NCBI GenBank assembly: GCA_964650135.1
Contig: CAZYTQ010000001.1
Span: forward strand, 1,434-65,433
Source of the DNA: an uncultured Anaerolineaceae bacterium
Lineage (GTDB): Bacteria > Chloroflexota > Limnocylindria > Limnocylindrales > CSP1-4
Length of the DNA stretch: 64,000 bases
Reading direction: 5' to 3'
The translations under genes and the position numbers were made by a program. This document shows, one piece after another, positions 5,738-54,060 of this stretch. Below the pieces are notes generated by a model. That model did not search any database, was not told where the DNA came from, and saw only the letters and a list, made by a program, of their open reading frames with translations. The first letter of the stretch is position 1; each line of letters begins with the position of its first letter.

Positions 5738-6574
5738 GTGGAGCTGCGAGTCCTGGCTGACGGCCTCGACCATCCGGAGGGCCTCGCGTGGGACCCGGCC
5801 GGATCGATCATCGCGGGTGGCGAGGACGGTCAGCTGTATCGGGTCGACATCCACGGGGATGGCGTGACGCTCCTGGGCAGACCGGGGGGCTACATCCTGG
5901 GTATCGCCATCGACGGTCAGGGCCGCATCTTCTGGTGCGACCAGGACACGCGTTCGGTGATGCGATATGACCCGGCGACCGGACACGCGGCCACCTGGAG
6001 CACGGGTGCTCCGGAGACGCCCTTCCGGGTGCCCAACGCGCTCGTGTTCGACGCGGCGGGTCGGCTCTACGTGTCGGAGTCAGGTGACTGGACGACGCAT
6101 GACGGGGCGCTCTTCGTGATCGAGTCGGATGGCACGACACGGCTCGCGTCCACCGAGACGCGCGACTTCCCCAACGGCATCGCGATCGACCCGGCGGGCA
6201 CGTGGCTGTATCTGGTCGAGACATCGGGGCCGGCGGTCGCCCGGTTCCCCATCCGTGCCGACGGGGCACTCGGGCCCCGCGAGGTCGCCGTCCGACTGCC
6301 ACGGACCGTCCCCGATGGGCTTGCGTTCGTCGACGACGGACGGCTGCTCATCTCGTGCTATCGCCCGGACGCCATCATGATCTGGGATGGCTCGGAGGCG
6401 ACCACGCTCGTCGATGACTGGACCGGCCTCGACCTGTGCTCGCCGACCAACCTCGCGTTCTTCGGCGAGGACCTCGATCGCCTGGCGACCGCGAACCTCG
6501 GCCTGGAGCACCTGACGGAGGTCACCAGCGGCCTCCGTGGGGCACCGCTCCGCTATCCCGTGCTCCCTGCGTGA
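5738..6574 (+). CDS. SMP-30/gluconolactonase/LRE-family lactonase (six-bladed beta-propeller)
   Basis: DHPEGLAWDP, GRIFWCD, NALVFDAAGRLYVSESG, PNGIAIDP and PDGLAF motifs are typical of SMP-30/gluconolactonase. GTG start. Close paralog of 24831..25673. Confidence 0.85.
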   Translation: MELRVLADGLDHPEGLAWDPAGSIIAGGEDGQLYRVDIHGDGVTLLGRPGGYILGIAIDGQGRIFWCDQDTRSVMRYDPATGHAATWSTGAPETPFRVPNALVFDAAGRLYVSESGDWTTHDGALFVIESDGTTRLASTETRDFPNGIAIDPAGTWLYLVETSGPAVARFPIRADGALGPREVAVRLPRTVPDGLAFVDDGRLLISCYRPDAIMIWDGSEATTLVDDWTGLDLCSPTNLAFFGEDLDRLATANLGLEHLTEVTSGLRGAPLRYPVLPA

Positions 6575-7386
6575 CCGACGCGGCACCACCCGACCTCCTG
6601 GCTGGCCGGGTCGCGGTCGTCACCGGCGCGGGTCGTGGCATCGGCCTGGGCATCGCTGAGCGGCTCGCGACCGCGGGTGCTCGAGTGGTCATCGGCGAGC
6701 TGGTGGAGGAGCGGGGGAGGTCAGCCGCGGAGCGCCTCGCGAGCCAGGGCCTGGCGGTCGAGGCGGTCCAGCTGGATGTGGCGAGCGGCACATCGTGCGC
6801 CGCGATGGTGGAGACCGTCGTGGGTCGTCTTGGCCGGATCGACATCCTGGTCAACAACGCAGGCCTGTTCCGACTGCATCCCTCCGAGACGATGCCCGAG
6901 GAGGATTGGCGGCTCCAGATCGACGTCATGCTGACCGGCGTGTTCCTGTGCACCCAAGCGGTTGGTCGGGTGATGATCGAGCAGCAGGGCGGCAGCATCG
7001 TCAGCATCGCGTCCATCGGTGGCATGGGCGGGTGGCCCATGCGCTCGGCGTACAACGCCGCCAAGGCGGGTGTCATCGTGCTCACGGAGGTGCTCGCCAC
7101 CGAGTGGGCCCACCATGGCATCCGGCTCAACTGCGTCTCGCCGGGCGTCACCCGGACCGACATGATGGATGTGGCGGTGAAGCAGGGCGTGGCGAGCCTC
7201 GAGCGCTACGAGCGCCGGACGCCGTTGGGTCGGGTCGCGGAGGTGTCGGAGATCGCGAGCGCCGTCCTGTTCCTGGCCTCCGATCGGGCGAGCTACATCA
7301 CGGGTCAGAACCTCCGGGTGGACGGCGGGTGGGTGCCCTGGGGCAACCTCCACGCGGTCGGCTTCCCCGAGCAGGACCCGGCGTGA
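6571..7386 (+). CDS. SDR family oxidoreductase
   Basis: VVTGAGRGIG, NNAG, YNAAKAG. GTG start overlapping the upstream stop (GTGA). Confidence 0.8.
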   Translation: MTDAAPPDLLAGRVAVVTGAGRGIGLGIAERLATAGARVVIGELVEERGRSAAERLASQGLAVEAVQLDVASGTSCAAMVETVVGRLGRIDILVNNAGLFRLHPSETMPEEDWRLQIDVMLTGVFLCTQAVGRVMIEQQGGSIVSIASIGGMGGWPMRSAYNAAKAGVIVLTEVLATEWAHHGIRLNCVSPGVTRTDMMDVAVKQGVASLERYERRTPLGRVAEVSEIASAVLFLASDRASYITGQNLRVDGGWVPWGNLHAVGFPEQDPA

Positions 7387-8147
7387 GCAGGACCGCTGGT
7401 CGGACCGTCGTCATCACGGGTGCCGCACGAGGTCTCGGTCTGGGCATGGCTCGCAGGTTCGCGGCGGCCGGCGACCGGGTCGTGCTCACCGATGTCGACA
7501 GCATCACGGGTGCCGCAGCCGCCGCGGCGCTCGCTGGACAGAGCGCGCGGGTGAGCTTCCGGGCGCTCGACGTGCGTGACCCGGCCATGGTGGACGAGGT
7601 GGTCAGGGCCACCCTCGCAGACCACGGCGCCATCGACGTGTGGGTCAACAACGCCGGGATCGCCCGCACGGCTCCCGCGGAGACGCTCGCTGTCGAGGAC
7701 TGGGACGAGAGCATCGCGGTGCTGCTCTCGGGTGCCTTCCACTGCGCGCGATCGGCGGGACGAGTGATGCTCGCACAGGGACGCGGGGTCATCGTCAACA
7801 TCGCGTCGGTCAACGGGTTCCACCCGATCGAGGGGCGGGTCGCCTATTCGGTCGCCAAGGCAGGTCTGGTCATGCTCACCCAGGCGCTTGGCATCGAGTG
7901 GGCGGCGCGTGGGGTCCGGGTCGTCGGCATCGCACCAGGCGTGGTGATGACCGACCTCGTGGCGCAGGGCGTCAGTGCGGGCACGGCGTCCGTGGAGGTG
8001 TATGAGCGTCGCACGCCCATGGGTCGACTGGGCGAGGTGGATGAGGTCGCGGAGGCGGTCGTGTTCCTGGCCAGCGACGACGCCTCATACATCGTGGGCG
8101 AGACGCTCCGGGTCGATGGCGGCTGGACCGCCTACCAGCTGTTCTAG
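7383..8147 (+). CDS. SDR family oxidoreductase
   Basis: ITGAARGLG, NNAG, YSVAKAG. GTGA overlap with the upstream SDR. Confidence 0.8.
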   Translation: MSRTAGRTVVITGAARGLGLGMARRFAAAGDRVVLTDVDSITGAAAAAALAGQSARVSFRALDVRDPAMVDEVVRATLADHGAIDVWVNNAGIARTAPAETLAVEDWDESIAVLLSGAFHCARSAGRVMLAQGRGVIVNIASVNGFHPIEGRVAYSVAKAGLVMLTQALGIEWAARGVRVVGIAPGVVMTDLVAQGVSAGTASVEVYERRTPMGRLGEVDEVAEAVVFLASDDASYIVGETLRVDGGWTAYQLF

Positions 8148-8162
8148 CCAACCAGGAGGACG

Positions 8163-8615
8163 ATGACGGTGCAGGTCAGCGGCACACAGCACACAGGCTT
8201 CTCGGTCGTCGATCTCGATCGGTCGATCGAGCTCTTCGCGCTCCTGGGGTGCGAGGTGATCTGGCGACGCGAGATCACGGACGCCTACTTCCGGGAGATC
8301 GTGGGGCTGCCCGACACGGTCGTCCAGGCAGCGCATCTTCGGATCCCGGGCACGGGTCACGTCGTGGAGCTGTTCCAGTACGGACCCCAGGGTGAGCCGG
8401 CGAACCTCCGGCCCAACGAGCCTGGGCATGCACACCTGTGTTTCCTGGTCGATGACCTGCCGGCCGCCTATGACGAGCTGCGCGCCAAGGGAGTGCGCTT
8501 CACGTCCTCCCCGGTGCTCATCACCGCGGGCGTGAACACGGGCGGGTACGGCGTGTACCTGGTCGACTCCAGCGGCATCACCCTCGAGCTGTTCCAGCCG
8601 CCTCGACCGGCCTGA
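8163..8615 (+). CDS. VOC (glyoxalase/bleomycin-resistance/dioxygenase) family protein
   Basis: ~150 aa with the paired beta-alpha-beta-beta-beta pattern: HTGFSVVDLDRSIELF...HLCFLVDDL...GVRF. Confidence 0.7.
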   Translation: MTVQVSGTQHTGFSVVDLDRSIELFALLGCEVIWRREITDAYFREIVGLPDTVVQAAHLRIPGTGHVVELFQYGPQGEPANLRPNEPGHAHLCFLVDDLPAAYDELRAKGVRFTSSPVLITAGVNTGGYGVYLVDSSGITLELFQPPRPA

Positions 8616-10311: not shown

Positions 10312-10333
10312 CAGCGTCGCACCCCTGACACCC

Positions 10334-11239: not shown

Positions 11240-12069
11240 GGACGCGGCGACTGGAGCGTGCGTTCGCCTATCTGCTCCTGGTGCTCATCGCCATCATCGG
11301 GTTCGCGCCGTTCGTGGTCATCGTGCTCCTGAGCACCAAGGCCCGCATCGAGATCCTCCAGGTACCGCCCTCCCTCGACCTCGATATCGACCAGATCGTG
11401 ACCAACTATCGCGACGTGCTCATCAACCGTGGGTTCCTGGGCTACACCGTGAACTCGATCATGGTCACGACCATCACGGTGGTCGTGGCGCTGATGATCG
11501 CGGCGCCCGCCGCGTACGCCTTCTCGCGCATCCCGTTCGCGCGCCGCGATGGCTGGGCGAACACGGTGCTCAGCCTGCGCTTCATGCCGGCGGTGGCCGT
11601 GGCCATCCCGATCCTGCTGATGATGCGGTTCATCGACCTCGACGACACGCTGCCGGGCCTGGTCATCCCCTACGTGGCCTTCAGCCTGCCGCTCGCCATC
11701 TGGATCCTCATCGGCTTCTTTGACGAGATCCCTCGCGAGCTCGATGATGCGGCCATGGTGGACGGCTGCACCCGCCTGCGGGTGCTGTGGTCGGTGATGC
11801 TGCCCCTCGTCCGACCCGGGCTCATCGTGGCGGCGATCTTCGCGGCCATCTTCATCTGGAACGAGTTCCTGGTGGGCATGTACATCGTCAACTCCCAGGG
11901 CCTCAAGACGATCCCCCTCGGCGCTGCGGGCCTGATCTCCGCGCAACGGCCCATCGACTGGAACGTGGCCGCCACGGTCGGCGTCGTGACCATCATCCCC
12001 ATCTTCCTGTTCTCGCTGTTCGTGCAGCGATACATCGTGCGCGGGATCACCGCAGGAGCTGTCAAGTGA
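11236..12069 (+). CDS. Carbohydrate ABC transporter permease (MalG-type)
   Basis: ATGA overlap with the upstream permease. DDAAMVDGCTRLRVLWSVMLPLVRPGL EAA loop. Confidence 0.85.
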   Translation: MRTRRLERAFAYLLLVLIAIIGFAPFVVIVLLSTKARIEILQVPPSLDLDIDQIVTNYRDVLINRGFLGYTVNSIMVTTITVVVALMIAAPAAYAFSRIPFARRDGWANTVLSLRFMPAVAVAIPILLMMRFIDLDDTLPGLVIPYVAFSLPLAIWILIGFFDEIPRELDDAAMVDGCTRLRVLWSVMLPLVRPGLIVAAIFAAIFIWNEFLVGMYIVNSQGLKTIPLGAAGLISAQRPIDWNVAATVGVVTIIPIFLFSLFVQRYIVRGITAGAVK

Positions 12070-12965
12070 GCGGATCCGACACACCCACCCACGAGCTGCT
12101 CGCCGACGGGCTCGGCTGGGCGGAAGGCCCCACGGTCCTGCCCGACGGCCGCATCTGCTTCGTGGAGAGCTATCGCAGCCAGGTCTCGGTCTGGCAGCGC
12201 GACCGGGGTGTGCGTCGCTACGCGTACACCGCGGGTGCGCCCAACTCGTGCGTCCTTGGGGATGGGGGCCGGATGTATGTCTGCCAGAACGGCGGCACGG
12301 TCGGGCCGTGGCGGGCCGAGGAGATGTCCGTGCCCTCGATCCAGGTCATCGAGTCGGAGGGCGGACCAGCGCGCATCATCGCGACCGAGCTCGACGGCCG
12401 GACCTTCCATGGCCCCAATGACCTGGTCTTCGGCCCGGATGGCCGCCTCTACTTCACCGACCCGGGCACCTATCGCCCGGCCGATCCGGAGCCGTCGTAC
12501 CTGTTCGTGCTGGAGGCCGATGGCTCCGGTCGTCTGCTCGCGGAGCTCGACCCGCCCACGTTCCCCAACGGCATCGCCATCGAGGCGGACGGCAGCGTCG
12601 TGTGGGCCGAGTCGTACACCGGCATGGTGCGTCGGCTCCGTCCCGGGACGGGCGTCATCGAGGACATCGCGAGGCTGCCCGGCGAGAAGCCCGTCGCGGA
12701 CGGCATGGCCGTGGGCGCCGACGGCCGGCTGTACGTGACGACCGTCAACGGAGGGGGCATCGATGTCATCCGTTCGGACGGCACCTACGACCGCTTCATC
12801 AAGGCCGGTGCCATCCCCACCAACTGCGTGTTCGCGGGCACCGACCTGATCATGACCGACGCGGGTGTCCTCGCGGATTCGGCCGATGCATCCTTCGGGG
12901 GCCAGGTCTGGCGCATCCCGCTGGGTGTCACCGGCCTGCCCACCTGGACCGGCCGCATCGGCTGA
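12066..12965 (+). CDS. SMP-30/gluconolactonase/LRE-family lactonase
   Basis: GTGA overlap with the permease stop. LGWAEGPTVLPDGRICFVES, GRLYFTDPG, PNGIAIEADG beta-propeller lactonase motifs. Confidence 0.8.
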   Translation: MSGSDTPTHELLADGLGWAEGPTVLPDGRICFVESYRSQVSVWQRDRGVRRYAYTAGAPNSCVLGDGGRMYVCQNGGTVGPWRAEEMSVPSIQVIESEGGPARIIATELDGRTFHGPNDLVFGPDGRLYFTDPGTYRPADPEPSYLFVLEADGSGRLLAELDPPTFPNGIAIEADGSVVWAESYTGMVRRLRPGTGVIEDIARLPGEKPVADGMAVGADGRLYVTTVNGGGIDVIRSDGTYDRFIKAGAIPTNCVFAGTDLIMTDAGVLADSADASFGGQVWRIPLGVTGLPTWTGRIG

Positions 12966-13019: not shown

Positions 13020-13325
13020 ATGGACTTCCTGGTGCACATCACGTTCACCTGGCCGGCCGGCATCACGGCCGACGAGCAGCAGCGGCTCATCACCGCGGAG
13101 GGGCAGCGTGCCCGCGAGCTGGCTGCAGCCGGCCATCTCAAGCGGCTCTGGCGCATCCCCGGTCAGCGTGCCAACTGGGGCATCTGGCACGCTGCTGACG
13201 CCACGGAGCTCCACGCGGCGCTGTCGTCGCTGCCGATGTTCCCCCACCTGGTCGCCACGGTCCACCTCCTTGGCGACCATCCCAACGACCCCGCCAGCTG
13301 GACCGACCAGGAGGCCACGAGGTGA
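13020..13325 (+). CDS. Muconolactone delta-isomerase (MLI/CatC) family protein
   Basis: This 101-aa protein aligns with CatC along its length (LWRI.G..AN......A....ELH..L..LP.FP pattern: LKRLWRIPGQRANWGIWHAADATELHAALSSLPMFPHL). Confidence 0.65.
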   Translation: MDFLVHITFTWPAGITADEQQRLITAEGQRARELAAAGHLKRLWRIPGQRANWGIWHAADATELHAALSSLPMFPHLVATVHLLGDHPNDPASWTDQEATR

Positions 13326-14140
13326 CCGACCAGCGCGCTGCGGATGACCAGGAGCTCACCATCCCGGCGGGCTTCGTGGATGGCCTGTTCGACCTGGGCG
13401 GCCGGGTGGCCGTCGTGACCGGCGCCGGCTCGGGTCTCGGCCGGGCGATCTCCATCGGCTATGCCCAAGCGGGCGTGACCGTGGTCGTTGCTGACGTGAA
13501 CGATCAGGGCACCTCGGAGACCGTGGACCTCATCCGCGCCCAGGGCGGAGCGGCTACCGCGCACCATCTCGATGTGACCTCGAAGGAGCAGGTCGATGGG
13601 CTTGCCGAGCTGGTGGTCCGCGACCACGGGCACGTGGACATCCTGGTCAACTCGGCCGGCTCCGCGTTCCGCTCGCCCGCCGAGGACTTCCCGGAGGAGC
13701 GCTTCGACTTCATCCTGGACCTGAACCTCAAGGGCACCTACCTATGCTGCCAGGCATTCGGGCGACCGATGCTTGCCCAAGGCAAGGGCAGCATCATCAA
13801 CCTGGCCTCGATCGGCTCGTTCATCGCGTATCCGTGGGCGAGCGCCTATCTCGCGTCGAAGGGCGGCGTCCTGGGTGTCACGCGTGCGCTCGCGCTCGAG
13901 TGGCGTGACCGGGGCGTCAGGGTCAACGGCATCGGACCCACGCTCATGGACTCGCCCCTGACGCGTGCCGCCGCTCAGCGCACCTCGATCACGGCAGACT
14001 GGATCAAGGGGCGCATGCTGCGACCCCGGCTGGGCCTGCCGCGTGAGCTCATCGGTGCGGCGATCTTCCTCGCCAGCGACGCCGCGGAGCTGGTCACCGG
14101 CCATACCCTGATGTGCGACGACGGGTACCTGGTCGCATAG
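13322..14140 (+). CDS. SDR family oxidoreductase
   Basis: VVTGAGSGLG, NSAG, YLASKGG. Confidence 0.8.
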   Translation: MTDQRAADDQELTIPAGFVDGLFDLGGRVAVVTGAGSGLGRAISIGYAQAGVTVVVADVNDQGTSETVDLIRAQGGAATAHHLDVTSKEQVDGLAELVVRDHGHVDILVNSAGSAFRSPAEDFPEERFDFILDLNLKGTYLCCQAFGRPMLAQGKGSIINLASIGSFIAYPWASAYLASKGGVLGVTRALALEWRDRGVRVNGIGPTLMDSPLTRAAAQRTSITADWIKGRMLRPRLGLPRELIGAAIFLASDAAELVTGHTLMCDDGYLVA

Positions 14141-15382: not shown

Positions 15383-15859
15383 GTGCCTACCATCACCCGC
15401 CCGCATCACATGGGTATCCAGGTCGCCGACCTCGAGCGGTCACTGGCCTTCTACCGCGACATCCTCGGCTTCGAGGTGGTGTTCCAGTGGAACCCGCAGG
15501 CCGAGTACATCCGGACGATCGTGGGCTACCCGGACGCGGACATCCATGCCGCGATCCTGCGGATGCCCGCCGACACCGGCGTGTTCCTGGAGATCCTGGA
15601 GTACCGCAACGTCGAGAAGACGCCCGTCGATACCCGAACGGCCAATCCGGGCACCGCGCATCTCGCGTTCTTCACGGATGACTGCGACGCGTTGTACGAG
15701 GAGCTGGTCGCCAAGGGCGTCAAGTCGGTCAACCCGCCCGTGACCCCGACCATCGGCCCCAACACCGGTGGCCGGGCGGTGTACATGATCGACCCCGACG
15801 GTATCCGGGTGGAGTTCATCACGTCGAAGCAGGCCTTCGACGGCACGCCCAACGAGTAG
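15383..15859 (+). CDS. VOC (glyoxalase/dioxygenase-fold) family protein
   Basis: GTG start 5 nt after a GGAGG RBS. HHMGIQVADLERSLAFYRDILGFEV...HLAFFTDD. Confidence 0.7.
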   Translation: MPTITRPHHMGIQVADLERSLAFYRDILGFEVVFQWNPQAEYIRTIVGYPDADIHAAILRMPADTGVFLEILEYRNVEKTPVDTRTANPGTAHLAFFTDDCDALYEELVAKGVKSVNPPVTPTIGPNTGGRAVYMIDPDGIRVEFITSKQAFDGTPNE

Positions 15860-19901: not shown

Positions 19902-19927
19902 TCCAGCGTCACGCAGAGGAGGCACCG

Positions 19928-20959: not shown

Positions 20960-20975
20960 CCCTGGCCACATCCCG

Positions 20976-21003
20976 TGCGATCGCGGCTGGAGCCGCGGTC
21001 GCA
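20976..21003 (+). promoter_or_regulatory. Imperfect inverted repeat GCGATCGCGGCT..AGCCGCGGTCGC (12-bp stem with one G-U wobble) just downstream of the SBP gene
   Basis: Read from the sequence. Analogous position to the 10285 stem-loop. Confidence 0.35.
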
Positions 21004-39781: not shown

Positions 39782-39911
39782 AGGGTCCCTCCCGGGCCGC
39801 ACCCGCGGATCCCCGAGCCGAGGACGGCCCACACTGAGCGCGCCACATTCGAACGTGGAGGGCAAGCCGCCGTCGGCGGACACCCGACCAGCAATGAGGA
39901 GGTTCTCGTCC

Positions 39912-40976: not shown

Positions 40977-41028
40977 TCCACCCCATGGGCGAGCGAGGAC
41001 CGTCACGCGCGTGGGCTCCTCGCTCGTC

Positions 41029-44749: not shown

Positions 44750-44819
44750 GGCGTCATCCCCGCCGAGTCGCCGGCTCGCGGCGGAGCGGCATCCGACCGA
44801 TCACCATGGAGGTGGACCG

Positions 44820-46019
44820 ATGGAGCCAGCAGATCTGACCCTGAGCGCAGGGCCCAACGATGTCTTCCCCGAGGTCCGGGCTGCCATGGGCGGCCCCGTG
44901 CTGTATCACTACGACCCCGTGTTCAAGGACCGATTCCGGGCCGCCGAGGCGGCCGTCGGCCGCATCTTCGGGTCGACCAGCCACGAGATCATCCTGATGC
45001 AGGGCGAGGCGATCCTGGGCCTGGAGGCGGCGGCACGTGCCCTCACGACCCGTGGCACGCCCTGCCTCAACCTCGTGTCGGGTGTGTTCGGCAAGGGATT
45101 CGGGATGTGGCTGTCGGCCATCGGCGCCGAGCTCCACGAGATCGAGGTCCCCTATGACCAGTCGATCGACCCCGCCGCAGTGGGGGCGTATCTCGACGCG
45201 CATCCGGACATCAAGGTGCTCGCGGTCGTCCACTCGGAGACGCCGTCGGGCACCGTGAACCCGGTCGATCGCATCGGCCCCATCTGTCGGGCACGCGGCG
45301 TGGTGACCATCGTGGATGCCGTGTCCTCGTACGGCGGGATCGAGCTGCGGCCCGAGGAATGGCAGCTGGACCTCGTGGTCGCGGGGCCCCAGAAGTGTCT
45401 CGGTGGACCCCCCGGCATGTCCCTGATGGCCATCTCCGACCAGGCATGGGCGGCCATCGAGGCCAATCCGGACGCGCCACGCGGGTCGTTCCTGAGCGTG
45501 CTCGACTGGCGCGACCTGTGGCATCGCGAGGGTCGCTTCCCGTTCACCCCCTCGGTACCCGACGTGATGGGCGTGCTGGCTGCCGCGGAGCTGCTGCTGG
45601 CCACGGGGACCGACGTCGTGCTGGCACGTCACGAGCGGGTCGCGCAGGCGTGTCGGGCCGGTGTCCGGGGCATGGGTCTCCGGCTGTGGGGCGTCTCCGA
45701 CGACATCCTCGCCGCATCGGTGACCTCCATCCGGGTGCCTGACGGCATCACGGACATCCAGGTGCGCGACCATGCCCGGGCGACGTACGGGGTGCAGCTG
45801 TCGGCCGGCCAGGGAGCGGGCAACATCATCCGCATCGGTCATATGGGCAACACGGCCCGGCCCGCGTTCGCCGTCGCCGGACTCGCGGCGATCGGCCAGA
45901 CGATGCGTGACCTGGGTGTCGAGATCGACATCGGGGCCGGTATCGACGCAGCGATGGCGTCGCTGTCCGGGACGGCACCGGGCATGTCGGCCCGTGCGGC
46001 GGCCGGGAGCCCGCCATGA
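44820..46019 (+). CDS. Class V aminotransferase (alanine-glyoxylate/serine-pyruvate aminotransferase-like, PLP-dependent)
   Basis: ~399 aa. Start at MEPADLTLSAGP after a GGAGGTGG RBS. Paralog of 50921..52096. Confidence 0.75.
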   Translation: MEPADLTLSAGPNDVFPEVRAAMGGPVLYHYDPVFKDRFRAAEAAVGRIFGSTSHEIILMQGEAILGLEAAARALTTRGTPCLNLVSGVFGKGFGMWLSAIGAELHEIEVPYDQSIDPAAVGAYLDAHPDIKVLAVVHSETPSGTVNPVDRIGPICRARGVVTIVDAVSSYGGIELRPEEWQLDLVVAGPQKCLGGPPGMSLMAISDQAWAAIEANPDAPRGSFLSVLDWRDLWHREGRFPFTPSVPDVMGVLAAAELLLATGTDVVLARHERVAQACRAGVRGMGLRLWGVSDDILAASVTSIRVPDGITDIQVRDHARATYGVQLSAGQGAGNIIRIGHMGNTARPAFAVAGLAAIGQTMRDLGVEIDIGAGIDAAMASLSGTAPGMSARAAAGSPP

Positions 46020-46915
46020 CCCGACTCGCCCCGTTCCGGCTCCACCAGCCGGCATCGGTGCCCGAGGCCACGGCCCTGCTCCGGGATCTGGGCGACGACG
46101 CCGCGGTCTACGCCGGCGGCACGGAGCTCCTGCTGCTGCTCAAGCTGGGCCTCGCGAGCGTGGCCGACCTGGTGGACCTCAAGCGGATCCCGGGTCTTGA
46201 CACGGTCTCGGTCGACGAGGACGGGGTGCTGCGCATCGGCGCGACCGCGACCCATCGACGCATCGAGCGCTCGCCCATCGTGGCTGCCGGCTGGCCGGCC
46301 CTCGCCTTCGTGGAAGGGCGCATCGCGAACATCCGTGTCCGGAGCGCCGGCACCCTGGGGGGCAACCTCTGCTTCGCCGACCCGCACTCGGACCCGGCGA
46401 CCCTGCTGCTGGCCGGGGATGCCCGGATCGTGGTCGGCGATGGGAAGACGGAGCGTACGCTCCGTCTCGGCGAGTTCCTGCTCGGGCCCTGGGAGACGGC
46501 ACTCCAGCCCGGCGAGCTGCTCCTGGCCATCGAGGTGCCCCCGCTGCCGGCCGGTGCCGGGATGTCCCATCAGCGGTTCCACGTGCACGAACGACCGGCG
46601 GCGACGGTCAGCAGTCTCGTGCGCGTGGAGGATGGCCGGCTGGCGGAGGTCAGGGTCGCGGTCGGTTCCGTGGGTCATCGATCGGTGCGTGTGCCGGAGG
46701 CCGAGACGCTGTTGACTGGCCAGGCGGCCGACGCCCTCGATGACCAGCTGCTGCGTGCCGCGGGCGAGCTGGCGGCGACCGCTGCCGAGCCGGACACGGA
46801 CAGCAACGGCACGGCCGTGTTCAAGGCGAACCTGGTGACCGTGCTCGTCGGACGGGCGGTCCGGGATGCCCTCGGCCGACATGGCCGCGATGACCAGCGC
46901 GGTCGCCCGACGTAA
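46016..46915 (+). CDS. FAD-binding subunit of a molybdenum hydroxylase (xanthine dehydrogenase family, CoxM/CutM-like)
   Basis: AVYAGGTELLLLLKLGL FAD-binding motif, TLGGNL, and CO-dehydrogenase-flavoprotein-like C-terminal region. ATGA overlap with the aminotransferase stop. Confidence 0.75.
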   Translation: MTRLAPFRLHQPASVPEATALLRDLGDDAAVYAGGTELLLLLKLGLASVADLVDLKRIPGLDTVSVDEDGVLRIGATATHRRIERSPIVAAGWPALAFVEGRIANIRVRSAGTLGGNLCFADPHSDPATLLLAGDARIVVGDGKTERTLRLGEFLLGPWETALQPGELLLAIEVPPLPAGAGMSHQRFHVHERPAATVSSLVRVEDGRLAEVRVAVGSVGHRSVRVPEAETLLTGQAADALDDQLLRAAGELAATAAEPDTDSNGTAVFKANLVTVLVGRAVRDALGRHGRDDQRGRPT

Positions 46916-46937
46916 CGCCTGAGTCCTGGAGGCCCCG

Positions 46938-48062
46938 ATGACCGACCCCCGAGATGCCTGGATCCGCGAGCAGGTCGCCGCACGACGGGAGCTGCTGGGT
47001 GGCGTCATCACAGCGGTCCATGCCACACCCGAGCTGGCGCACGAGGAGCATCGGACCGCGGCATCGCTGGTGCGCACGCTGGCGGAGCTCGGCCTCTCGG
47101 TCGAGACCGGCATCGCCGGCATGCCGACGGCCTTCCGCGCCACGCTGCGGGGCGACCTGCCCGGTCGGACCGTGGGCATCGTCGCCAACTACGACGCCGT
47201 GCCATCCGTGCCCCGACCGGGTGTCATCGAGCCCATCCATTCATGTGGCCACGGACCCAACAGCGCTGCGGTCGTGGGTGTCGTGGCGGCGCTGGCCGCG
47301 GATCGTGCGGCACTCCACGGGAGCGTCGTGGTGATGGGTTGTCCGGCGGACGAGATCCACGCGCCGAACACGGTGGCACGCGGCGGAGGCAAGGCACTCT
47401 CTGCCCGCGGAGGCGCATGGGCGGGTATCGACGTCGCGCTCTACGCCCACCCGGAGTTCCTCGACACGGCCTGGCTGGAGTCGGCCTGGATGCGTCGCGA
47501 CACCGCGAGCGTGTATGGCACGCGAGACCTCGCCGATGGCGCACCCCGGGCAGAGCTCCGGGCGCTCGCGGCCGCCGCGGAGGCCGCCATCGAGATCCCC
47601 GGCACGCGCCTGATGCTCGAGACGCTCGTCTTCGATGGCGATGTCGAGTCGAACACGGGCGTCGGGTGGAGCGCGCGGTTCCTGCTCTGGGCGCCCGACG
47701 AGGCCGGGATCGACCAGCTCGCCGCCTGGCTGCGTGAGCGGGTGGACGCGGACTGGGAGTCCGGCGACCTGTGGCCGGGCATCGCGCCCGACGACGGCGT
47801 GCGCGCCGCCGTGGCTGCCGCGCATCGAGCGGCCGGCCGGCAGTACGTGGAGCCGCCGATGCCGCTGCCCTTCGCGGCCGACTTCGGGGTCATCACGCGC
47901 ATGGTCCCGGCCGCGCTCGTGGGGGTCGGTCGACCCGGCGGCTGGGCGTTCCACACACCCGAGGGATACGCCCAGTTCTCGTCCGACGCGGGTCTCGACG
48001 CGGCCGTCGACACGGCGACCGTGCTCGCACTCGCCGCGGAGCGGCTGACCGCGCCCTCGTGA
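46938..48062 (+). CDS. M20D-family amidohydrolase (aminoacylase/hippurate hydrolase-like)
   Basis: HSCGHG metal-binding motif and ~374 aa size fit peptidase M20D. Confidence 0.7.
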   Translation: MTDPRDAWIREQVAARRELLGGVITAVHATPELAHEEHRTAASLVRTLAELGLSVETGIAGMPTAFRATLRGDLPGRTVGIVANYDAVPSVPRPGVIEPIHSCGHGPNSAAVVGVVAALAADRAALHGSVVVMGCPADEIHAPNTVARGGGKALSARGGAWAGIDVALYAHPEFLDTAWLESAWMRRDTASVYGTRDLADGAPRAELRALAAAAEAAIEIPGTRLMLETLVFDGDVESNTGVGWSARFLLWAPDEAGIDQLAAWLRERVDADWESGDLWPGIAPDDGVRAAVAAAHRAAGRQYVEPPMPLPFAADFGVITRMVPAALVGVGRPGGWAFHTPEGYAQFSSDAGLDAAVDTATVLALAAERLTAPS

Positions 48063-50920: not shown

Positions 50921-52096
50921 TCAGCTGCCGAGCACCTCGAGCGCTGCCTCCAGGCCGGTGCCGATGTCGACGGCGACGCCGTAGTCGCGCAGGCCCTTGC
51001 CCAGGGCACTGAGCGCCACGATCGGATGTAGCGATGTCGCGGCGGGGCCCATGTGGCCCAGACGGAAGACGGCCTCGGTCATCGGGCCGTGCTCGCCATC
51101 GGAGATCATCACGCCGTACGTCGAGCGGATGTGGGCGATGACCTCCGCATTGGAGATGCCGTCCGGGACCTTCACGGCGGTCACGGCGTGCGACGCCGCA
51201 GCGTCGTCGGTCACCCACAGGTCCAGGCCCATGCCGCGCACACCGGCTCGACACGCGTTCGCCGCCCGTCGATGGCGCGCATACGATGCCTCCAGGCCAT
51301 CCTCGAACAGCTCCGCGAGCGCCGCGTCCACGCCGTTGATCTCGGCAACGGATGTGGTGTAGGGGAACTTGCGCCGACCCGCGTCGATCCAGCGGTCCTT
51401 CCAGTCGAGCAGCGACAGGTAGGAGCCACGCGGTGCTGCCGGGTTCGCGCGGAGCGCGGCCCATGCACGGTCGCTCACCGCCACGAAGGCCAGCCCCGGA
51501 GATGCCCCGAGCCCCTTCTGCGTCCCGCCGACCGTGATGTCCAGGCCCCAGTCGTCGTGATGGATGGGTGTGCCCGCGAACGCGGACACGGCATCCACGA
51601 TGGTCAGGGCGCCGTGACGGCGAGCGATCGGACCGATCTCGGCCATCGGGTTCAGGGATCCCGAGGGCGTCTCCGAGTGGACGACACCGACGAGGCCGAT
51701 GTCCGGATGCTCCACGAAGGCGCGCTCCACCGACGCGGGATCGATGGCCTCGTTCCAGGGCACCTCGATCTCGATGACCTCGGCACCCAGGTCCCGGAGC
51801 CAGTCTCCGAACCACTTGCCGAAGATCCCGGACACGAGGTTGAGCGCCTTCATCCCCGGTCGGGTGAGGCCCTTGGCGCCTGCCTCGAGGCCCAGGATCG
51901 CCTCGCCCATCATGACCACGACATCGCCCTGCGTGTGGAACACCTCGGCGACGCGCCGCTCCACATCGAGGAACCGCTGGAGATAGACGGGGTCGTACTC
52001 GTACAGGACCGGGCGGCCCAGACCCGCTCGTGCCCGTTCGGAGACCGCGACCGGGCCCCCGGTGTAGGTGAAGGTCGCGCCGTGGTCGGTGCTCAT
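50921..52096 (-). CDS. Class V aminotransferase (paralog of 44820..46019)
   Basis: Collinear with 44820..46019 along its full length (VLYEYDPVYLQRF / VLYHYDPVFKDRF; NLVSGIFGKWFG / NLVSGVFGKGFG; RLGHMGPAA / RIGHMGNTA). Confidence 0.75.
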   Translation of the reverse strand: MSTDHGATFTYTGGPVAVSERARAGLGRPVLYEYDPVYLQRFLDVERRVAEVFHTQGDVVVMMGEAILGLEAGAKGLTRPGMKALNLVSGIFGKWFGDWLRDLGAEVIEIEVPWNEAIDPASVERAFVEHPDIGLVGVVHSETPSGSLNPMAEIGPIARRHGALTIVDAVSAFAGTPIHHDDWGLDITVGGTQKGLGASPGLAFVAVSDRAWAALRANPAAPRGSYLSLLDWKDRWIDAGRRKFPYTTSVAEINGVDAALAELFEDGLEASYARHRRAANACRAGVRGMGLDLWVTDDAAASHAVTAVKVPDGISNAEVIAHIRSTYGVMISDGEHGPMTEAVFRLGHMGPAATSLHPIVALSALGKGLRDYGVAVDIGTGLEAALEVLGS

Positions 52097-52139
52097 GGGT
52101 CGGTGCTCCTCGGGTATCGGGCTGTGTCGATGGGGCGGG

Positions 52140-52541
52140 CTACGCCAGGGTCTCGATCTCCACGAGGAACCCGTCAGGGTCGCGGACGAAGAACCGACCA
52201 CCGCCCCACGGGGGTGACCAGGGCTCGCTCGCGAACGGCACGCCCCGAGCCGCCAGCTCGGTATGGACCGCATGGACGTCCGCCACACGCAGGACCAGCA
52301 CGGCCGACGGGTGAGCCGGGTCCGCGGGCGCGGTCATGACGTACCCGTCCAGATCCGACGCGGGATGTCCCTGCTCCGCGAGGCACAGACCCACGGGACC
52401 GTTCGAGAGGATCGCGAATGGCGGGTCGTCGAACCTCGCATCCAGGGTGAAGCCGAGGCCTTCCGTGTAGAAGGCCATGGACGCGCCAAAGTCCGACACC
52501 GCGAGGATGGGACCGCCGCTCAGGACTCGGAAGGAGGCCAT
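52140..52541 (-). CDS. VOC (glyoxalase/bleomycin-resistance) family protein
   Basis: ~133 aa. LAVSDFGASMAFYTEGLGF. Confidence 0.65.
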   Translation of the reverse strand: MASFRVLSGGPILAVSDFGASMAFYTEGLGFTLDARFDDPPFAILSNGPVGLCLAEQGHPASDLDGYVMTAPADPAHPSAVLVLRVADVHAVHTELAARGVPFASEPWSPPWGGGRFFVRDPDGFLVEIETLA

Positions 52542-52553
52542 GGCATCGGCCGC

Positions 52554-53288
52554 CTAGTGACGCGTGTGGCCGCCGTCGACCACGAGCATCGAGCCGGTCA
52601 CCCAGCGTGCCTCCTCGCTCACCAGGAACGCGACCGCCGGCGCGATGTCGGCTGCCAGGCCACGCCGCGGGATGGCCTGGAGCGACTGCACGAAATCGAA
52701 TGCCTCAGCGTGTGGTGAGGCCGCCGTACCCTCCGTCTCGGTCAGCCCGGGTGCCACGGCGTTGACCGTGATGCCGTGCTTGCCGAGCTCCGTGGCGAGT
52801 GCCCGTGTGAAGCCGAGCACGCCACCCTTGGAGGCGACGTAGTGGGCGAGGTTCGGGGTGCCTGCCACGATCACGTTCGAGGCGATGTTGACGATGCGGC
52901 CATAGCCGGCCTTGCGCATCTCGTCAGACGCGTGGCGGTTGGTCAGGAACGTGCCATCGAGGTTGACGGCCATGATCCGGCGCCACTCCGCGAAGTCCAC
53001 CTCGTCCCACGCGGTGAAGGGCACGATGGCTGCGTTGTTGACGAGGATGTCCAGCTTGCCGTAGGTGTCCACGGCTGCCTGCACCATCGCCTTGACCGAC
53101 GCCTCGTCCGAGACATCCGTCCGGATGCCGACGGCGGACGGCAGGCTCGCGGCCGCGGCCTTCGCGCCGTCCTCGTTGAGATCGGCGAGGACGACCGATG
53201 CGCCCTCGGCTGCCAGCTTGTCCGCGATGGCACGCCCGATGCCCTGGGCGCTGCCGGTGACGATCGCGACGCGACCTTCCAGTGTCAT
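52554..53288 (-). CDS. SDR family oxidoreductase
   Basis: VTGSAQGIG, NNAA, YVASKGG. Confidence 0.8.
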   Translation of the reverse strand: MTLEGRVAIVTGSAQGIGRAIADKLAAEGASVVLADLNEDGAKAAAASLPSAVGIRTDVSDEASVKAMVQAAVDTYGKLDILVNNAAIVPFTAWDEVDFAEWRRIMAVNLDGTFLTNRHASDEMRKAGYGRIVNIASNVIVAGTPNLAHYVASKGGVLGFTRALATELGKHGITVNAVAPGLTETEGTAASPHAEAFDFVQSLQAIPRRGLAADIAPAVAFLVSEEARWVTGSMLVVDGGHTRH

Positions 53289-53313
53289 GGTCGAACTCCT
53301 CCGGGATGTCGGG

Positions 53314-54060
53314 TCACTCGTAGTGCTCGGGAGCATGCTTCCACGACTCCCACGGACCCATGTCGTGGGAGGGGAAGATCTCCGCGTCGTGATCCTTTGC
53401 CATCTGCTTGATGCGCTTGATGGCGCTGATGGAGTCGACCGGGTCGAGGTGGAAGCCACCGATGATCATCCGGTCGAGCGTCTCCTGCGTGTACACCGCG
53501 TCACCGCAGAAGATCATCGGTCGACGACCCTCGGGCTCCGCGAGCAGGGAGTAGTGGCCGATGGTGTGACCGGGCGTCTCGAACAGGGTGAGGCCCCGGG
53601 CGATCTCGACGTCGCCCTCGAGGAACTCGACCTTGGTCACACCCCGCTCGTAGAACGTCACGTCGCTGTAGCCCAGGCGCTCGAACGGCTCGGGCACGAG
53701 ACCCGAGCGCAGCTCCCACTTGCTGGTGAGAAGCGTGGCGTTGGTGAGGTACTTGTTGCCGCCGACATGGTCGAAGTGGAAGTGCGAGTTGATGACGTAG
53801 TCGATCTCCTCGGGCTTGACGCCGATGACGTCCAGCTGTGCCGGGAGCGTCTGCTGGGGTGTCTGCTCGGGCAGCTCGAACGGCAGGACCTTGTTCACAT
53901 GGTCCAGGTCGTAGCCGGTGTCGAAGATGAACTTCCCCTCAGGGTGGTCGATGTAGACCCCGAACACGGGGAATCGGACAGGCGTCCCGACGTCGATGTG
54001 CCACAGGACGTCGGAACGGTCGATGACGAGCGACCCCAGGTCCAGCAGGTAGATCCGCAT
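53314..54060 (-). CDS. MBL-fold metallo-hydrolase, N-acyl-homoserine-lactonase (AiiA)-like
   Basis: HxHxDH zinc motif SHFHFDHVGG, downstream His/Asp ligands (GHTIGH, CGDAVY), ~248 aa. Confidence 0.7.
   Translation of the reverse strand: MRIYLLDLGSLVIDRSDVLWHIDVGTPVRFPVFGVYIDHPEGKFIFDTGYDLDHVNKVLPFELPEQTPQQTLPAQLDVIGVKPEEIDYVINSHFHFDHVGGNKYLTNATLLTSKWELRSGLVPEPFERLGYSDVTFYERGVTKVEFLEGDVEIARGLTLFETPGHTIGHYSLLAEPEGRRPMIFCGDAVYTQETLDRMIIGGFHLDPVDSISAIKRIKQMAKDHDAEIFPSHDMGPWESWKHAPEHYE

Follow-up and report, generated by a model that had tools for sequence, protein, structure and literature searches.

In the window, that is the whole stretch of 64,000 nucleotides analysed here, 48 kb hold seven genes of three lactone-hydrolase families: three PTE-family, three SMP-30/gluconolactonase-like (SGL) and one MBL-fold gene. 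All seven lie where the first-pass annotation had placed them, gene calling by GC3 gave the identical set, and in an HMM search all exceeded the Pfam thresholds (gathering threshold, GA, 26.3 bits for PF08450, SGL, and 22.4 bits for PF02126, PTE). "Lactonase" is used here as a family-level label assigned by sequence. Pfam likewise confirmed the kinds of neighbours described earlier: ABC systems of sugar type, SDRs and a member of the enolase superfamily. In total, the window contains three LacI regulators, four sugar-type ABC systems (two CUT1, two CUT2) and nine SDRs. From left to right, with operons assigned from gene spacing only, the features are:

94..690, plus strand: MaoC-like (mesaconyl-CoA-hydratase-like) protein at the left window edge (PF01575, 38 bits)
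1566..5523, minus: CUT1 ABC module a, two permeases, an SDR and a solute-binding protein (BPD_transp_1 twice, adh_short, SBP_bac_1), without ATPase gene and divergent from SGL1
5738..6574, plus: SGL1, six-bladed beta-propeller of the SMP-30/gluconolactonase family (PF08450, 75.6 bits)
6571-7386 and 7383-8147, plus: two SDRs downstream of SGL1 (Pfam; 4-base overlaps)
8163-8615, plus: VOC/glyoxalase-fold protein (Pfam); start codons of the genes in 6571..8615 checked, gene order as in locus L072
8730..12069, plus: CUT1 ABC module b, solute-binding protein and two permeases, upstream of SGL2 (Pfam)
12066..12965, plus: SGL2, beta-propeller lactonase-family protein (PF08450, 100.4 bits)
13020..13325, plus: muconolactone-isomerase-family protein, 101 aa (PF02426, 96.2 bits)
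13322..14140, plus: SDR_c dehydrogenase (Pfam)
14188..15324, plus: enolase-superfamily enzyme, acid-sugar-dehydratase- or cycloisomerase-like (MR_MLE_N/C)
15383..15859, plus: VOC_c, VOC/glyoxalase fold (PF00903, 73.8 bits)
15867..16823, plus: PTE1, binuclear metallohydrolase, nearest to the PHP type (PF02126, 193.9 bits)
16825..17892, minus, start codon approximate: LacI-family regulator 1 (LacI and Peripla_BP_3)
18007..21829, plus: CUT2 ABC module d (ATPase, permease, binding protein) and SDR_d (Pfam)
21905..22240, plus: RidA/L-PSP family protein (PF01042, 72.7 bits)
22237..23667, plus: L-arabinose/L-fucose isomerase-fold protein, 476 aa (AF2 and Foldseek)
23664..24740, plus: PTE2, hydrolase of the Rsp3690/PTER ("RTX") type (PF02126, 184.4 bits)
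24822..25673 (start 24831 in the database gene call), plus: SGL3, beta-propeller lactonase-family protein (PF08450, 56.9 bits)
25716..26765, plus: LacI-family regulator 2 (Pfam)
26895..30522, plus: CUT2 ABC module e, binding protein, ATPase and permease (Pfam)
30519..35811, plus: row of five genes (Pfam, NCBIfam), namely a PcaB/adenylosuccinate-lyase-family lyase (30519-31910), a mutarotase-like DUF4432 protein (31907-32896; Pfam), two SDRs (32893-34388) and a family III CoA-transferase (34423-35811)
35911..36957, plus, start codon approximate: LacI-family regulator 3 (Pfam)
37043..38200, minus: PTE3, hydrolase of the Rsp3690/PTER type (PF02126, 217.9 bits)
38197..38994, minus: GntR/FCD regulator upstream of PTE3 (Pfam; 4-base overlap)
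39044..48062, plus: Amidohydro_2 protein, Bmp-type ABC system, PPAT-like protein, CO-dehydrogenase-type FAD subunit and M20 amidohydrolase (Pfam)
50921..58516, minus: vitamin B6 catabolic cluster (NCBIfam and Pfam)
53314..54060, minus, within the latter: 4-pyridoxolactonase, MBL fold (PF00753, 87.1 bits; HFHFDH motif)

For a density control, HMMs built from the window paralogs were run on 61 loci, together about 0.95 Mb, 52 of which (L003-L054) had been fetched as homologues of PTE2. Among these 52, a second PTE gene within 10 kb was found at six loci and an SGL gene at seven, while three PTE or three SGL genes occurred at none. The nearest in density were only the sister MAG locus L002 (two PTE and one SGL gene in 21 kb) and L058; the combination of three PTE and three SGL genes was matched by none of the about 60 comparison loci. 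As an illustration with assumed numbers, five PTE genes placed at random in a 4.5-Mb genome would fall three within 22 kb with p ~7e-4. It is very improbable that the genes, as members of large families in a paralog-rich genome, lie together by coincidence. SGL-domain proteins are indeed widespread, with 45% of bacterial proteomes containing them (PMC9843451), catabolic enzymes are known to have multiplied into paralogs in Chloroflexota such as SAR202 (PMC6946804), and a second PTE gene is sometimes close by, as at the six loci above. However, the same sets of genes are grouped, though differently ordered, in ten or more independent contigs, and the hydrolases are translationally coupled to their neighbours: 4-base start/stop overlaps tie SGL2 (to the upstream permease), PTE2 (to the isomerase-fold gene), PTE3, SDRs and others to adjacent genes.

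The host is a high-GC Chloroflexota bacterium and the supercluster is chromosomal. L002 (Chloroflexi MAG ACE_CHL4) is collinear with the window over 21 kb at 83-99% amino-acid identity. The core set comprises SGL2, the muconolactone-isomerase-like protein, an SDR, the enolase-superfamily enzyme, VOC proteins and PTE1, followed by RidA, the Pfam-less arabinose-isomerase-fold protein, DUF4432, an SDR, the CoA-transferase and LacI. In the contigs of relatives it makes up one contiguous cluster, which in this window is interrupted by extra transporters and by PTE2, SGL3 and PTE3. L055 has the order SDR-MIase-SDR-MR_MLE-VOC-PTE1(77%)-RidA-isomerase-VOC, contiguous with DUF4432-SDR-CoA-transferase(85%)-LacI and then GntR/Amidohydro_2-Bmp-ABC; the block from DUF4432 to LacI comes there directly after the isomerase-fold gene. 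L056, L059 and L064 share SBP-perm-perm-SGL2-MIase-SDR-MR_MLE-VOC-VOC-isomerase (module b orthologues, 71-86%; SGL2 orthologues in unchanged position, 83-85%), L061 has MR_MLE-PTE1-...-RidA-isomerase-VOC-CoA-transferase, and a JGI contig RidA-isomerase-SGL-PTE-LacI-CUT2 ABC. The muconolactone-isomerase-family gene is in relatives always followed by an SDR and MR_MLE, and RidA adjoins the isomerase-fold gene in nine other loci. The cluster is accompanied by MaoC and/or HpcH lyase in L055, L058 and L061, and PTE1 orthologues (62-77%) are found in the same three loci. The isomerase-fold gene is the hub of the conserved cluster. Its product matches no Pfam or NCBIfam model, with distant homologues carrying PF11762; the AF2 model (pLDDT 91.4) matches L-arabinose isomerase in Foldseek (TM 0.77, E 6e-24). 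Operon coupling, cluster conservation and rearrangement in relatives are shown here, as are family membership and intact catalytic ligands.

PTE1, PTE2 and PTE3 are old paralogs of only 31-37% pairwise identity, which argues for distinct substrates. PTE1, the final gene of the SGL2 operon, retains all ligands (HxH, E, H, H, D) and has as best PDB match E. coli PHP (1bf6/4lef, 157 bits), an entry without depositor-assigned function; PHP is not known to act on any substrate. PTE2 matches 3k2g, 9efa and 3rhg (206, 196 and 173 bits), and the Glu of its "LGEVG" motif aligns with the metal ligand Glu174 of PTER. PTE3 scores 231 bits against 3k2g; it lies downstream of the GntR/FCD regulator, with which it is predicted to be co-transcribed, and is missing at the equivalent LacI/GntR junction of L055. 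Possibly, though we consider it unlikely, the PTE-family proteins, PTE2 and PTE3 at the least, act as esterases or amidases that cleave acyl substituents, for example O-acetyl or N-acyl, off imported molecules, leaving the propellers and the MBL protein as the only true lactonases. The best solved relatives of the PTE-family proteins in this respect are the metal-dependent carboxylesterases Rsp3690 and Pmi1525 (PMC5341072) and the N-acetyltaurine amidase/amidohydrolase PTER (PMC11374699, PMC12873775), with which PTE1-3 share a Glu-bridged metal centre, and the adjacency of PTE and SGL genes in the window and the JGI contig suggests non-redundant jobs. On the other hand, identity to these relatives is low, the proposed proton donor His305 of PTER is replaced at the aligned position by Ala, Cys or Phe, and either SGL2 or PTE1 is present in five of six relative loci of the core cluster, which hints at equivalent roles; moreover, a lactone is a cyclic ester, hence the chemistry does not discriminate.

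The three propellers all keep a lactonase propeller fold and the calcium-binding E/N/N/D tetrad, which in SGL3 (E18, N105, N151, D198) is invariant or nearly so among 28 homologues. SGL1 and SGL3 are paralogs (67% identity). The AF2 model of SGL3 (pLDDT 96.7) has the lactonase propeller fold, with Rpa3624 as top PDB match (TM 0.85), followed by DFPase, SMP30 and Drp35; SGL2 matches Rpa3624 (7ris/8djf) with 80 bits. This protein, the nearest solved relative of the SGL proteins, hydrolyses hydrophobic lactones but is inactive on gluconolactone and AHLs (PMC9843451).

The MBL protein, annotated at first as AiiA-like, turned out to be a 4-pyridoxolactonase: it exceeds the cut-off of equivalog NF047925 (367.5 versus 325 bits) and misses that of AiiA (116.7 versus 375). 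Its gene overlaps that of a pyridoxal 4-dehydrogenase (380.3 bits, cut-off 325) in a vitamin B6 catabolic cluster, which further encodes a PPAT-like transaminase (416 bits, best match, below the cut-off of 600), a VOC protein, an FHMPC-dehydrogenase-like protein (410 bits, best match, below the cut-off of 500), large and 2Fe-2S subunits of a Mo-hydroxylase and a class II aldolase-fold protein. The lactonase would convert the 4-pyridoxolactone formed by the adjacent dehydrogenase to 4-pyridoxate, a known reaction that sets it apart from the other six. The rival reading, an island of PLL-type and AiiA-type lactonases for quorum quenching or AHL scavenging, is largely refuted and extremely improbable. 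It could draw on the family-level likeness of PTE and MBL folds to AHL lactonases and on weak matches of the MBL protein to AiiA/AttM/AhlS models (97-117 bits), but the MBL protein fails all AHL-lactonase models. PTE1-3 carry Glu in place of the carboxylated Lys of the PLL metal centre (PMC4323659) and group by PDB matches with the PHP and RTX clades rather than with the PLL structures SsoPox, Dr0930, GKL and PPH, Rpa3624 lacks AHL activity, and no luxI/luxR-type gene or acylase is present in the window. The seven genes instead belong to a conserved catabolic supercluster of Chloroflexota and a vitamin B6 degradation cluster.

As for the supercluster, we see about an even chance that it encodes, under LacI control and fed by ABC importers, an oxidative breakdown of sugar-like compounds via lactone intermediates, by a pathway not characterised so far that lacks canonical downstream enzymes. 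In the presence of substrate, LacI- or GntR-type repressors would release the operons, and sugar-like compounds would be imported by the CUT1 and CUT2 systems. Interconversion of isomers would fall to the arabinose-isomerase-fold protein together with the mutarotase-like DUF4432, and SDRs would oxidise a ring carbon to yield a lactone. Lactone or ester rings would be opened by the calcium-dependent propellers and the binuclear, Glu-bridged PTE-family hydrolases, the muconolactone-isomerase-like protein possibly interconverting lactone forms. The enolase-superfamily enzyme would dehydrate or cycloisomerise the acid, and the product would reach central metabolism via VOC proteins, further SDRs, the CoA-transferase and the MaoC hydratase. 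We infer every substrate here, the order of steps, and that the PTE-family proteins act as lactonases and not as esterases or amidases.

Oxidative sugar pathways through lactones, as proposed in the first-pass annotation, hold in part. They are consistent with the LacI regulators, the ABC types, the SDRs (SDR_d, 20975-21829, passes the NCBIfam glucose 1-dehydrogenase subfamily model with 226.6 versus 215 bits), the acid-sugar-dehydratase-like enzyme and the isomerase-fold protein; against them, the window contains no DHDPS-type aldolase/dehydratase, FAH hydrolase or aldehyde dehydrogenase, the canonical non-phosphorylative downstream enzymes, and Rpa3624 does not act on gluconolactone. That the characterised relatives of PTE2 and PTE3 are not lactonases also counts against the sugar-lactone reading. 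The "several parallel pathways" of that annotation are only half right: comparison with relatives points to one conserved supercluster onto which extra modules have accreted. About as likely as not, it is built of modules linked to transporters, each bringing dehydrogenases and a ring-opening hydrolase of its own; it borders on the B6 cluster.

Rather improbable, although less so than quorum quenching or coincidence, are non-sugar substrates that form lactones (muconolactone-type, alicyclic or hydrophobic), degraded in a beta-ketoadipate-like sequence of cycloisomerase, lactone isomerase, hydrolase and CoA-transferase. The muconolactone isomerase family member, the PcaB-like lyase (360 bits against the model for 3-carboxy-cis,cis-muconate cycloisomerase), the MR_MLE enzyme, the CoA-transferase, MaoC and, in relatives, HpcH would fit, as would the preference of Rpa3624 for hydrophobic lactones and a possible ring-cleaving dioxygenase role of VOC-fold proteins. 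However, the beta-ketoadipate-like scores all stay below equivalog cut-offs (CatC, 63 versus 130.6 bits), and outside the B6 genes all equivalog scores are far below them. The enolase-superfamily protein scores far higher with acid-sugar dehydratases (L-talarate/galactarate dehydratase as best NCBIfam match, 113 bits, far below cut-off) than with muconate cycloisomerase (38 bits), its PDB matches at about 85-91 bits being galactonate dehydratase 5olc, 4ggb, TalrD/GalrD and anhydrogalactonate cycloisomerase. Regulators are of the LacI type and transporters of the CUT1/CUT2 sugar types, the hub gene has the arabinose-isomerase fold, a GH51 arabinofuranosidase adjoins the cluster in L059, and neither a ring-hydroxylating nor an intradiol dioxygenase was found.

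As a point against the sugar reading, the muconolactone-isomerase-like protein, PcaB-like lyase and CoA-transferase would suit a muconolactone-type route just as well. SDR_c has GolD/DthD as best NCBIfam family (222 bits, below cut-off). In the row right of PTE3, the Amidohydro_2 protein weakly matches LigW decarboxylase as nearest PDB entry, and the pyridoxamine-pyruvate-transaminase-like gene (44820-46019) has PPAT as best match (453 bits, cut-off 600). The divergent SGL1 unit, with ABC genes on the minus and SGL-SDR-SDR-VOC on the plus strand, is repeated in L071 and L072.

Because G+C is ~70% throughout the window, raw ORF lists were crowded with shadow ORFs. Genes were called with a codon-position GC model, which gave ~60 genes, many of them with 4-base start/stop overlaps. 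Two overlapping long ORFs, 60918-63998 (+) and 61845-63698 (-), have high GC3 and no Pfam match in either frame; the former extends beyond the window end. The seven genes that the first-pass annotation had assigned to lactone-hydrolase families are real, all scoring above the Pfam gathering thresholds.

Lactone-hydrolase-family genes and the vitamin B6 cluster of the window
5738-6574 (+), SGL1, SMP-30/gluconolactonase-like beta-propeller protein (PF08450, 75.6 bits, threshold 26.3)
12066-12965 (+), SGL2, same family (100.4 bits, same threshold)
24822 or 24831 to 25673 (+), SGL3, same family, with two candidate starts (56.9 bits, same threshold)
15867-16823 (+), PTE1, phosphotriesterase-family protein (PF02126, 193.9 bits, threshold 22.4, profile positions 1-298)
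23664-24740 (+), PTE2, same family (184.4 bits, same threshold and profile positions)
37043-38200 (-), PTE3, same family (217.9 bits, same threshold and profile positions)
53314-54060 (-), metallo-beta-lactamase-fold (MBL) gene (PF00753)
44820-48062 (+) and 50921-60976 (-), vitamin B6 catabolic cluster, with pyridoxal 4-dehydrogenase (PLDH) and 4-pyridoxolactonase (PDLA) above equivalog cut-offs

As a density control, HMMs built from the window paralogs were run on 61 loci (~0.95 Mb). Among the 52 loci around PTE2 homologues (L003-L054), a second PTE lay within 10 kb in six and an SGL in seven, and none held three PTE or three SGL by these HMMs. Only two of the 61 loci, L002 (from the sister lineage) and L058, came near the density of the window. 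By this control on fetched loci, clustering of the seven genes is well above the level of the relatives.

The MBL gene had been described as AiiA-like. Its HFHFDH sequence (HxHxDH, residues 93-98) is a motif common to the whole MBL superfamily. The protein reaches 367.5 bits over its full length on the NCBIfam equivalog NF047925 (4-pyridoxolactonase, cut-off 325) and stays below every AHL-lactonase cut-off (AiiA 116.7 < 375, AttM 114 < 390, AhlS 97 < 475, YtnP 46 < 425, AidB 34 < 360), and the label is therefore corrected to 4-pyridoxolactonase. The gene at 52554-53336, which overlaps it, encodes the SDR-type pyridoxal 4-dehydrogenase that makes its substrate (NF047923, 380.3 bits, cut-off 325), and the same MBL-SDR pair occurs on a 1.8-kb Logan contig (L001). 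Nearby, too, are genes for a Mo-hydroxylase, a class II aldolase-fold protein and an FHMPC-dehydrogenase-like protein (best match at 410 bits, below the cut-off of 500), as well as one of two PPAT-like transaminases, the other being encoded 5 kb away. The two transaminases are 50% identical, and PPAT is their best match (416 and 453 bits) yet below its cut-off of 600. The genes around the MBL gene are a vitamin B6 catabolic cluster.

In Mesorhizobium loti, pathway I of vitamin B6 breakdown has eight enzymes: PPAT, pyridoxal 4-dehydrogenase, 4-pyridoxolactonase, 4-pyridoxic acid dehydrogenase, FHMPC dehydrogenase, HMPDC decarboxylase, MHPC oxygenase and AAMS hydrolase. The window, from a Chloroflexota host and not a rhizobium, shares the overlapping PLDH and PDLA genes (both above cut-off) and, adjacent to them, the FHMPC-dehydrogenase-like, two PPAT-like and class II aldolase-fold genes, the last of which has the fold of HMPDC decarboxylase. 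Neither a GMC-type dehydrogenase (such as 4-pyridoxic acid dehydrogenase), nor an FAD monooxygenase (such as MHPC oxygenase), nor a hydrolase of the alpha/beta fold (such as AAMS hydrolase) was found in it; in their place it holds the Mo-hydroxylase, a cupin, an LLM oxidoreductase, a Zn-ADH and HAD, M20, VOC and Amidohydro_2 genes. Compared with the Mesorhizobium pathway, the cluster is incomplete, and it may be a variant of that pathway. PLDH and PDLA have been tied to exchange of B6 catabolites among marine microbes (bioRxiv 10.64898/2026.01.20.700305). The Mo-hydroxylase, of the CO-dehydrogenase/xanthine-dehydrogenase type, has its FAD subunit at 46016-46915 (+), ~8 kb from the large and 2Fe-2S subunits on the opposite strand (55008-57803).

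PTE1-3 are old paralogs with pairwise identities of 31-37%. The metal ligands H23, H25, E148, H181, H209 and D266 (PTE1 numbering) are invariant among them and, judged by sequence, the three proteins look catalytically competent. The bridging carboxylate is a Glu, aligned with Glu174 of PTER. With the lactonases of the PLL-A and PLL-B groups (SsoPox, PPH, AhlA/QsdA, Dr0930, GKL) they have the Pfam family, the fold and the general hydrolytic mechanism in common, whereas the metal ligands of PLLs are four His, an Asp and a carboxylated Lys as the bridge (PMC4323659), at whose position PTE1-3 have G-E. The PHP and RTX clades are set apart from the quorum-quenching PLLs (PMC4323659), and it is here that the closest structures are found: the top PDB match of PTE1 is E. 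coli PHP (157 bits), that of PTE2 and PTE3 is Rsp3690 (206 and 231 bits), followed by PTER and Pmi1525, while the PLL structures 3fdk, 4if2 and 3f4c/3ojg rank below PHP or Rsp3690 for all three. Glu bridge and PHP/RTX kinship contradict a reading of these genes as PLL-type quorum-quenching lactonases, and the tempting label "PTE-like lactonase" is corrected to members of the PHP and RTX clades. Quorum quenching as the role of the island, which the PTE and MBL folds might have suggested, is hardly credible given this bridge and the failed AHL-lactonase models.

With E. coli PHP, Rsp3690, Pmi1525 and animal PTER, their best PDB matches, PTE1-3 share a (beta/alpha)8 binuclear centre built from HxH, the bridging Glu, H, H and D, though at ~30-40% identity at most. 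They lack the catalytic residues of a PTER-type N-acyl amidohydrolase apart from the Asp: His305, the proton donor proposed in the PTER literature, is not kept, its position being Ala in PTE2, Cys in PTE1 and Phe in PTE3, and the position of Tyr131 is Phe, Arg or His; Asp303 is conserved (sponge PTER numbering). E. coli PHP is a PDB entry without depositor-assigned function, and we know of no substrate for it since the structure was solved in 1998. Characterised relatives of PTE2 and PTE3 are esterases (PMC5341072) and another is an N-acetyltaurine amidase (PMC11374699), so that the PTEs might be deacylases. This is a possibility we hold only tentatively. Unlike these relatives, PTE1-3 sit in sugar-type operons beside beta-propeller lactonases. 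A lactonase role for PTE1-3 is itself something we infer, not a property of the family. A plasmid search with PTE1 gave a best match of 41% on a Curtobacterium plasmid, in an unrelated IclR-PTE-MFS context.

SGL1 and SGL3 are 67% identical, and SGL2 is distant from both. The six-bladed propeller fold is predicted by a structural model for SGL3 (pLDDT 96.7), by the identity of 67% for SGL1 and by sequence for SGL2. The best structural match of the SGL3 model is Rpa3624 of Rhodopseudomonas palustris (PDB 7RIS, 8DJF; TM 0.85), also the best sequence match of the SGLs albeit at only 24% identity, and DFPase, SMP30, Drp35 and XC5397 come next. A tetrad of E14, N100, N146 and D193 (SGL1 numbering) is invariant across SGL1-3 and varies little or not at all in 28 homologues. 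By motif, order and spacing its SGL3 members E18, N105, N151 and D198 are the counterparts of the Ca ligands E15, N123, N172 and D229 of Rpa3624 (PMC9843451); the match rests on motifs, spacing and the fold search, because PDB alignments of the SGL subfamily were filled by LRP and Pizza repeat proteins. That SGL1-3 are hydrolases of lactones is a well supported prediction, whereas specificity for sugar lactones is not well supported, and their "gluconolactonase" label needs correction. Rpa3624 prefers hydrophobic lactones, of the gamma, delta and epsilon types, and hydrolyses neither gluconolactone nor AHLs (PMC9843451). Together with the muconolactone-isomerase-like gene of the window, this would suit a muconolactone-type or hydrophobic-lactone route, which we consider unlikely. 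The SGLs of the window lie in sugar-type operons, a further difference from Rpa3624.

The context is of the carbohydrate type, with LacI regulators, CUT1 and CUT2 importers and an isomerase-fold hub gene. The short-chain dehydrogenase SDR_d (20975-21829) exceeds the glucose 1-dehydrogenase subfamily cut-off (226.6 > 215). The enolase-superfamily enzyme (14188-15324) has acid-sugar dehydratases and cycloisomerases as nearest kin, but its 113 bits on TalrD/GalrD fall far short of the cut-off, 500. Outside the B6 genes all matches to NCBIfam equivalogs are far below cut-off and give no substrate. The only direct hint at the substrate class of the SGL2 module, arabinose-containing glycans, is a GH51 alpha-L-arabinofuranosidase in a related locus (L059, 1-695), just upstream of the orthologue of the binding-protein gene SBP1_b. 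Of what the first-pass annotation had read into the region, the sugar-type oxidative context stands; the alternative of AHL lactones and quorum quenching does not, and one of the seven genes belongs to B6 catabolism. Both CUT1-type ABC systems, 1566-5523 (-) and 8730-12069 (+), are without an ATPase gene and presumably depend on an MsiK/MsmX-type ATPase that is shared and has its gene elsewhere; in the first, an SDR gene stands between binding protein and permeases, as in the related loci L071 and L072.

Known non-phosphorylative routes (Weimberg and Dahms pentose, L-fucose and L-rhamnose diketo-hydrolase, hexuronate) share with the window an ABC importer with LacI-type regulator, a sugar dehydrogenase of the SDR family, a lactonase of the SMP-30 type, a dehydratase or cycloisomerase from the enolase superfamily and a small protein that is possibly a lactone isomerase or mutarotase. 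An oxidative hexuronate route, for example, involves a galactarolactone isomerase and a cycloisomerase (PMC6353982). The window differs in lacking the DHDPS-type aldolase/dehydratase, FAH hydrolase and aldehyde dehydrogenase: by Pfam, none of its ~60 genes is a DHDPS-family aldolase/dehydratase, an FAH diketo-hydrolase or a KGSA dehydrogenase. Instead it has the arabinose-isomerase-fold protein, RidA, two VOC proteins, DUF4432, a family III CoA-transferase and MaoC. Since the canonical downstream enzymes are absent and muconolactone-isomerase-like, VOC, RidA, DUF4432, PcaB-like lyase and CoA-transferase genes stand in their place, the pathway is an uncharacterised one. To our knowledge PTE-family hydrolases are part of none of the described non-phosphorylative routes, and a literature search for a link between the two found none. 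The Amidohydro_2 gene (39044-39781) was considered as an eighth lactonase, its family including LigI and fuconolactonase, and rejected: the nearest solved protein is the decarboxylase LigW, a weak match.

The isomerase-fold protein (22237-23667 (+), 476 aa) has no Pfam or NCBIfam match, and its homologues are annotated as L-fucose/L-arabinose isomerase-like in the source records. Its predicted structure (pLDDT 91) shows the three-domain AraA/FucI fold, with a Foldseek TM of 0.77 (E 6e-24) to AraA structures at ~15% identity and 0.66 to FucI. Among the residues kept in all homologues (E327, H273, H442, H443, D306) or in nearly all (E337), there may be counterparts of the Mn-binding Glu/Glu/His/His set. 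Homologues above 40% identity are all metagenomic, the few with a taxon label being Chloroflexota; a metagenome scan for the family gave nine loci, mostly short, and a plasmid search two weak partial matches only.

VOC and RidA genes nearly always adjoin these homologues, and gene order is kept over longer distances. A collinear 21-kb locus (L002) with 83-99% amino-acid identity was found by the PTE2 scan in the MAG "Chloroflexi bacterium ACE_CHL4"; other PTE2 homologues, mostly at 30-38% and from Dehalococcoidia, have unrelated neighbourhoods and served the density control only. L055 contains, contiguously, SDR-MIase-SDR-MR_MLE-VOC-PTE1 (77%)-RidA-isomerase-VOC-DUF4432-SDR-CoA-transferase (85%)-LacI, MIase being the muconolactone-isomerase-like and MR_MLE the enolase-superfamily gene, and continues without a break into GntR/Amidohydro_2-Bmp-ABC. 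L056, L059 and L064 have SBP-perm-perm-SGL2 (83-85%)-MIase-SDR-MR_MLE-VOC-VOC-isomerase, L061 has MR_MLE-PTE1-...-RidA-isomerase-VOC-CoA-transferase, and a JGI contig has RidA-isomerase-SGL-PTE-LacI-CUT2 ABC. The SGL1 unit, ABC (-)/SGL-SDR-SDR-VOC (+), recurs in L071 and L072, and MaoC at 94-690 of the window corresponds to the MaoC and HpcH genes alongside the cluster in relatives. We infer that 8.7-37 kb is one ancestral cluster now broken up by added modules, namely LacI_1 with CUT2 system d, PTE2-SGL3-LacI_2 with CUT2 system e and the PcaB-like lyase, and PTE3. Chance co-location is very improbable in view of the recurring gene sets and the density control. A recently acquired mobile island was rejected: there is no tRNA gene, GC is uniform (0.66-0.73) and synteny with L002 is conserved.

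The muconolactone-isomerase-like gene (13020-13325 (+)) scores 96 bits in Pfam and below the CatC equivalog cut-off; the order MIase-SDR-enolase-superfamily is fixed in at least six loci, within a sugar-type ABC operon, an unusual setting for the family. In L058 (6511-9076), enolase-superfamily and PTE genes are fragmented and a PIN-domain gene is inserted, the fragments being either pseudogenes or assembly errors. In seven loci (L017, L020, L023, L028, L031, L034, L052), each from a MAG that bears the label Dehalococcoidia, Dehalococcoidales or Dehalococcoidaceae, the PTE2 homologue has an SGL ~4-7 kb away on the other strand. This is a second case, independent of the first, of PTE and SGL genes as neighbours.

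In the route we propose, a substrate would be imported and isomerised, oxidised by SDRs to lactones and ring-opened by hydrolases of the SGL family, the PTE family or both; the product would then be dehydrated or cycloisomerised, and CoA-dependent breakdown would come last. Substrates and step order are deduced from gene content, and for the model as a whole we see the chances as evenly balanced. Going further, ~8.7-37 kb might be the window copy of an undescribed Chloroflexota pathway in which PHP/RTX-type PTEs are lactone hydrolases of carbohydrate catabolism; this we put forward tentatively, as conjecture. Its conserved core would comprise the Pfam-less arabinose-isomerase-fold enzyme, RidA, two VOC proteins, the muconolactone-isomerase-like and enolase-superfamily enzymes, a beta-propeller lactonase, a Glu-bridged PHP-type PTE, DUF4432, SDRs, a CoA-transferase, a MaoC hydratase and an HpcH lyase. 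The pathway would convert a sugar-like substrate taken up from outside, which could be a deoxy, branched or uronic compound, with delta- and gamma-lactones and CoA esters as intermediates.

The recurring set of isomerase-fold, RidA, VOC, muconolactone-isomerase-like, enolase-superfamily, SGL and/or PTE and CoA-transferase genes fits no described pathway known to us. If PTE1 is the lactonase of this route, the PHP-type branch gains a testable physiological function, and if the undescribed-pathway reading is true, the PHP/RTX clades gain their first physiological role; if PTE1 is not such a lactonase, the island is one more paralog-rich Chloroflexota catabolic cluster. The locus is of value chiefly for a gene set that is conserved and testable and through which PHP-type PTEs might be given a function. 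It also places vitamin B6 catabolism beside a large carbohydrate-type catabolic supercluster in a Chloroflexota lineage.

SAR202 Chloroflexota likewise have many SDR, enolase-superfamily and CoA-transferase paralogs, and lactone intermediates have been proposed for their catabolic enzymes; PTE or SMP-30 families are unmentioned in these papers (PMC5395668, PMC6946804). The window differs in its 70% GC and in its closest relative, a MAG labelled only "Chloroflexi bacterium". Richness in paralogs extends beyond the lactonase families: the 64 kb also encode nine SDRs with pairwise identities of 26-50%, four VOC/glyoxalase-fold proteins, two cupins, three LacI regulators and one GntR regulator.
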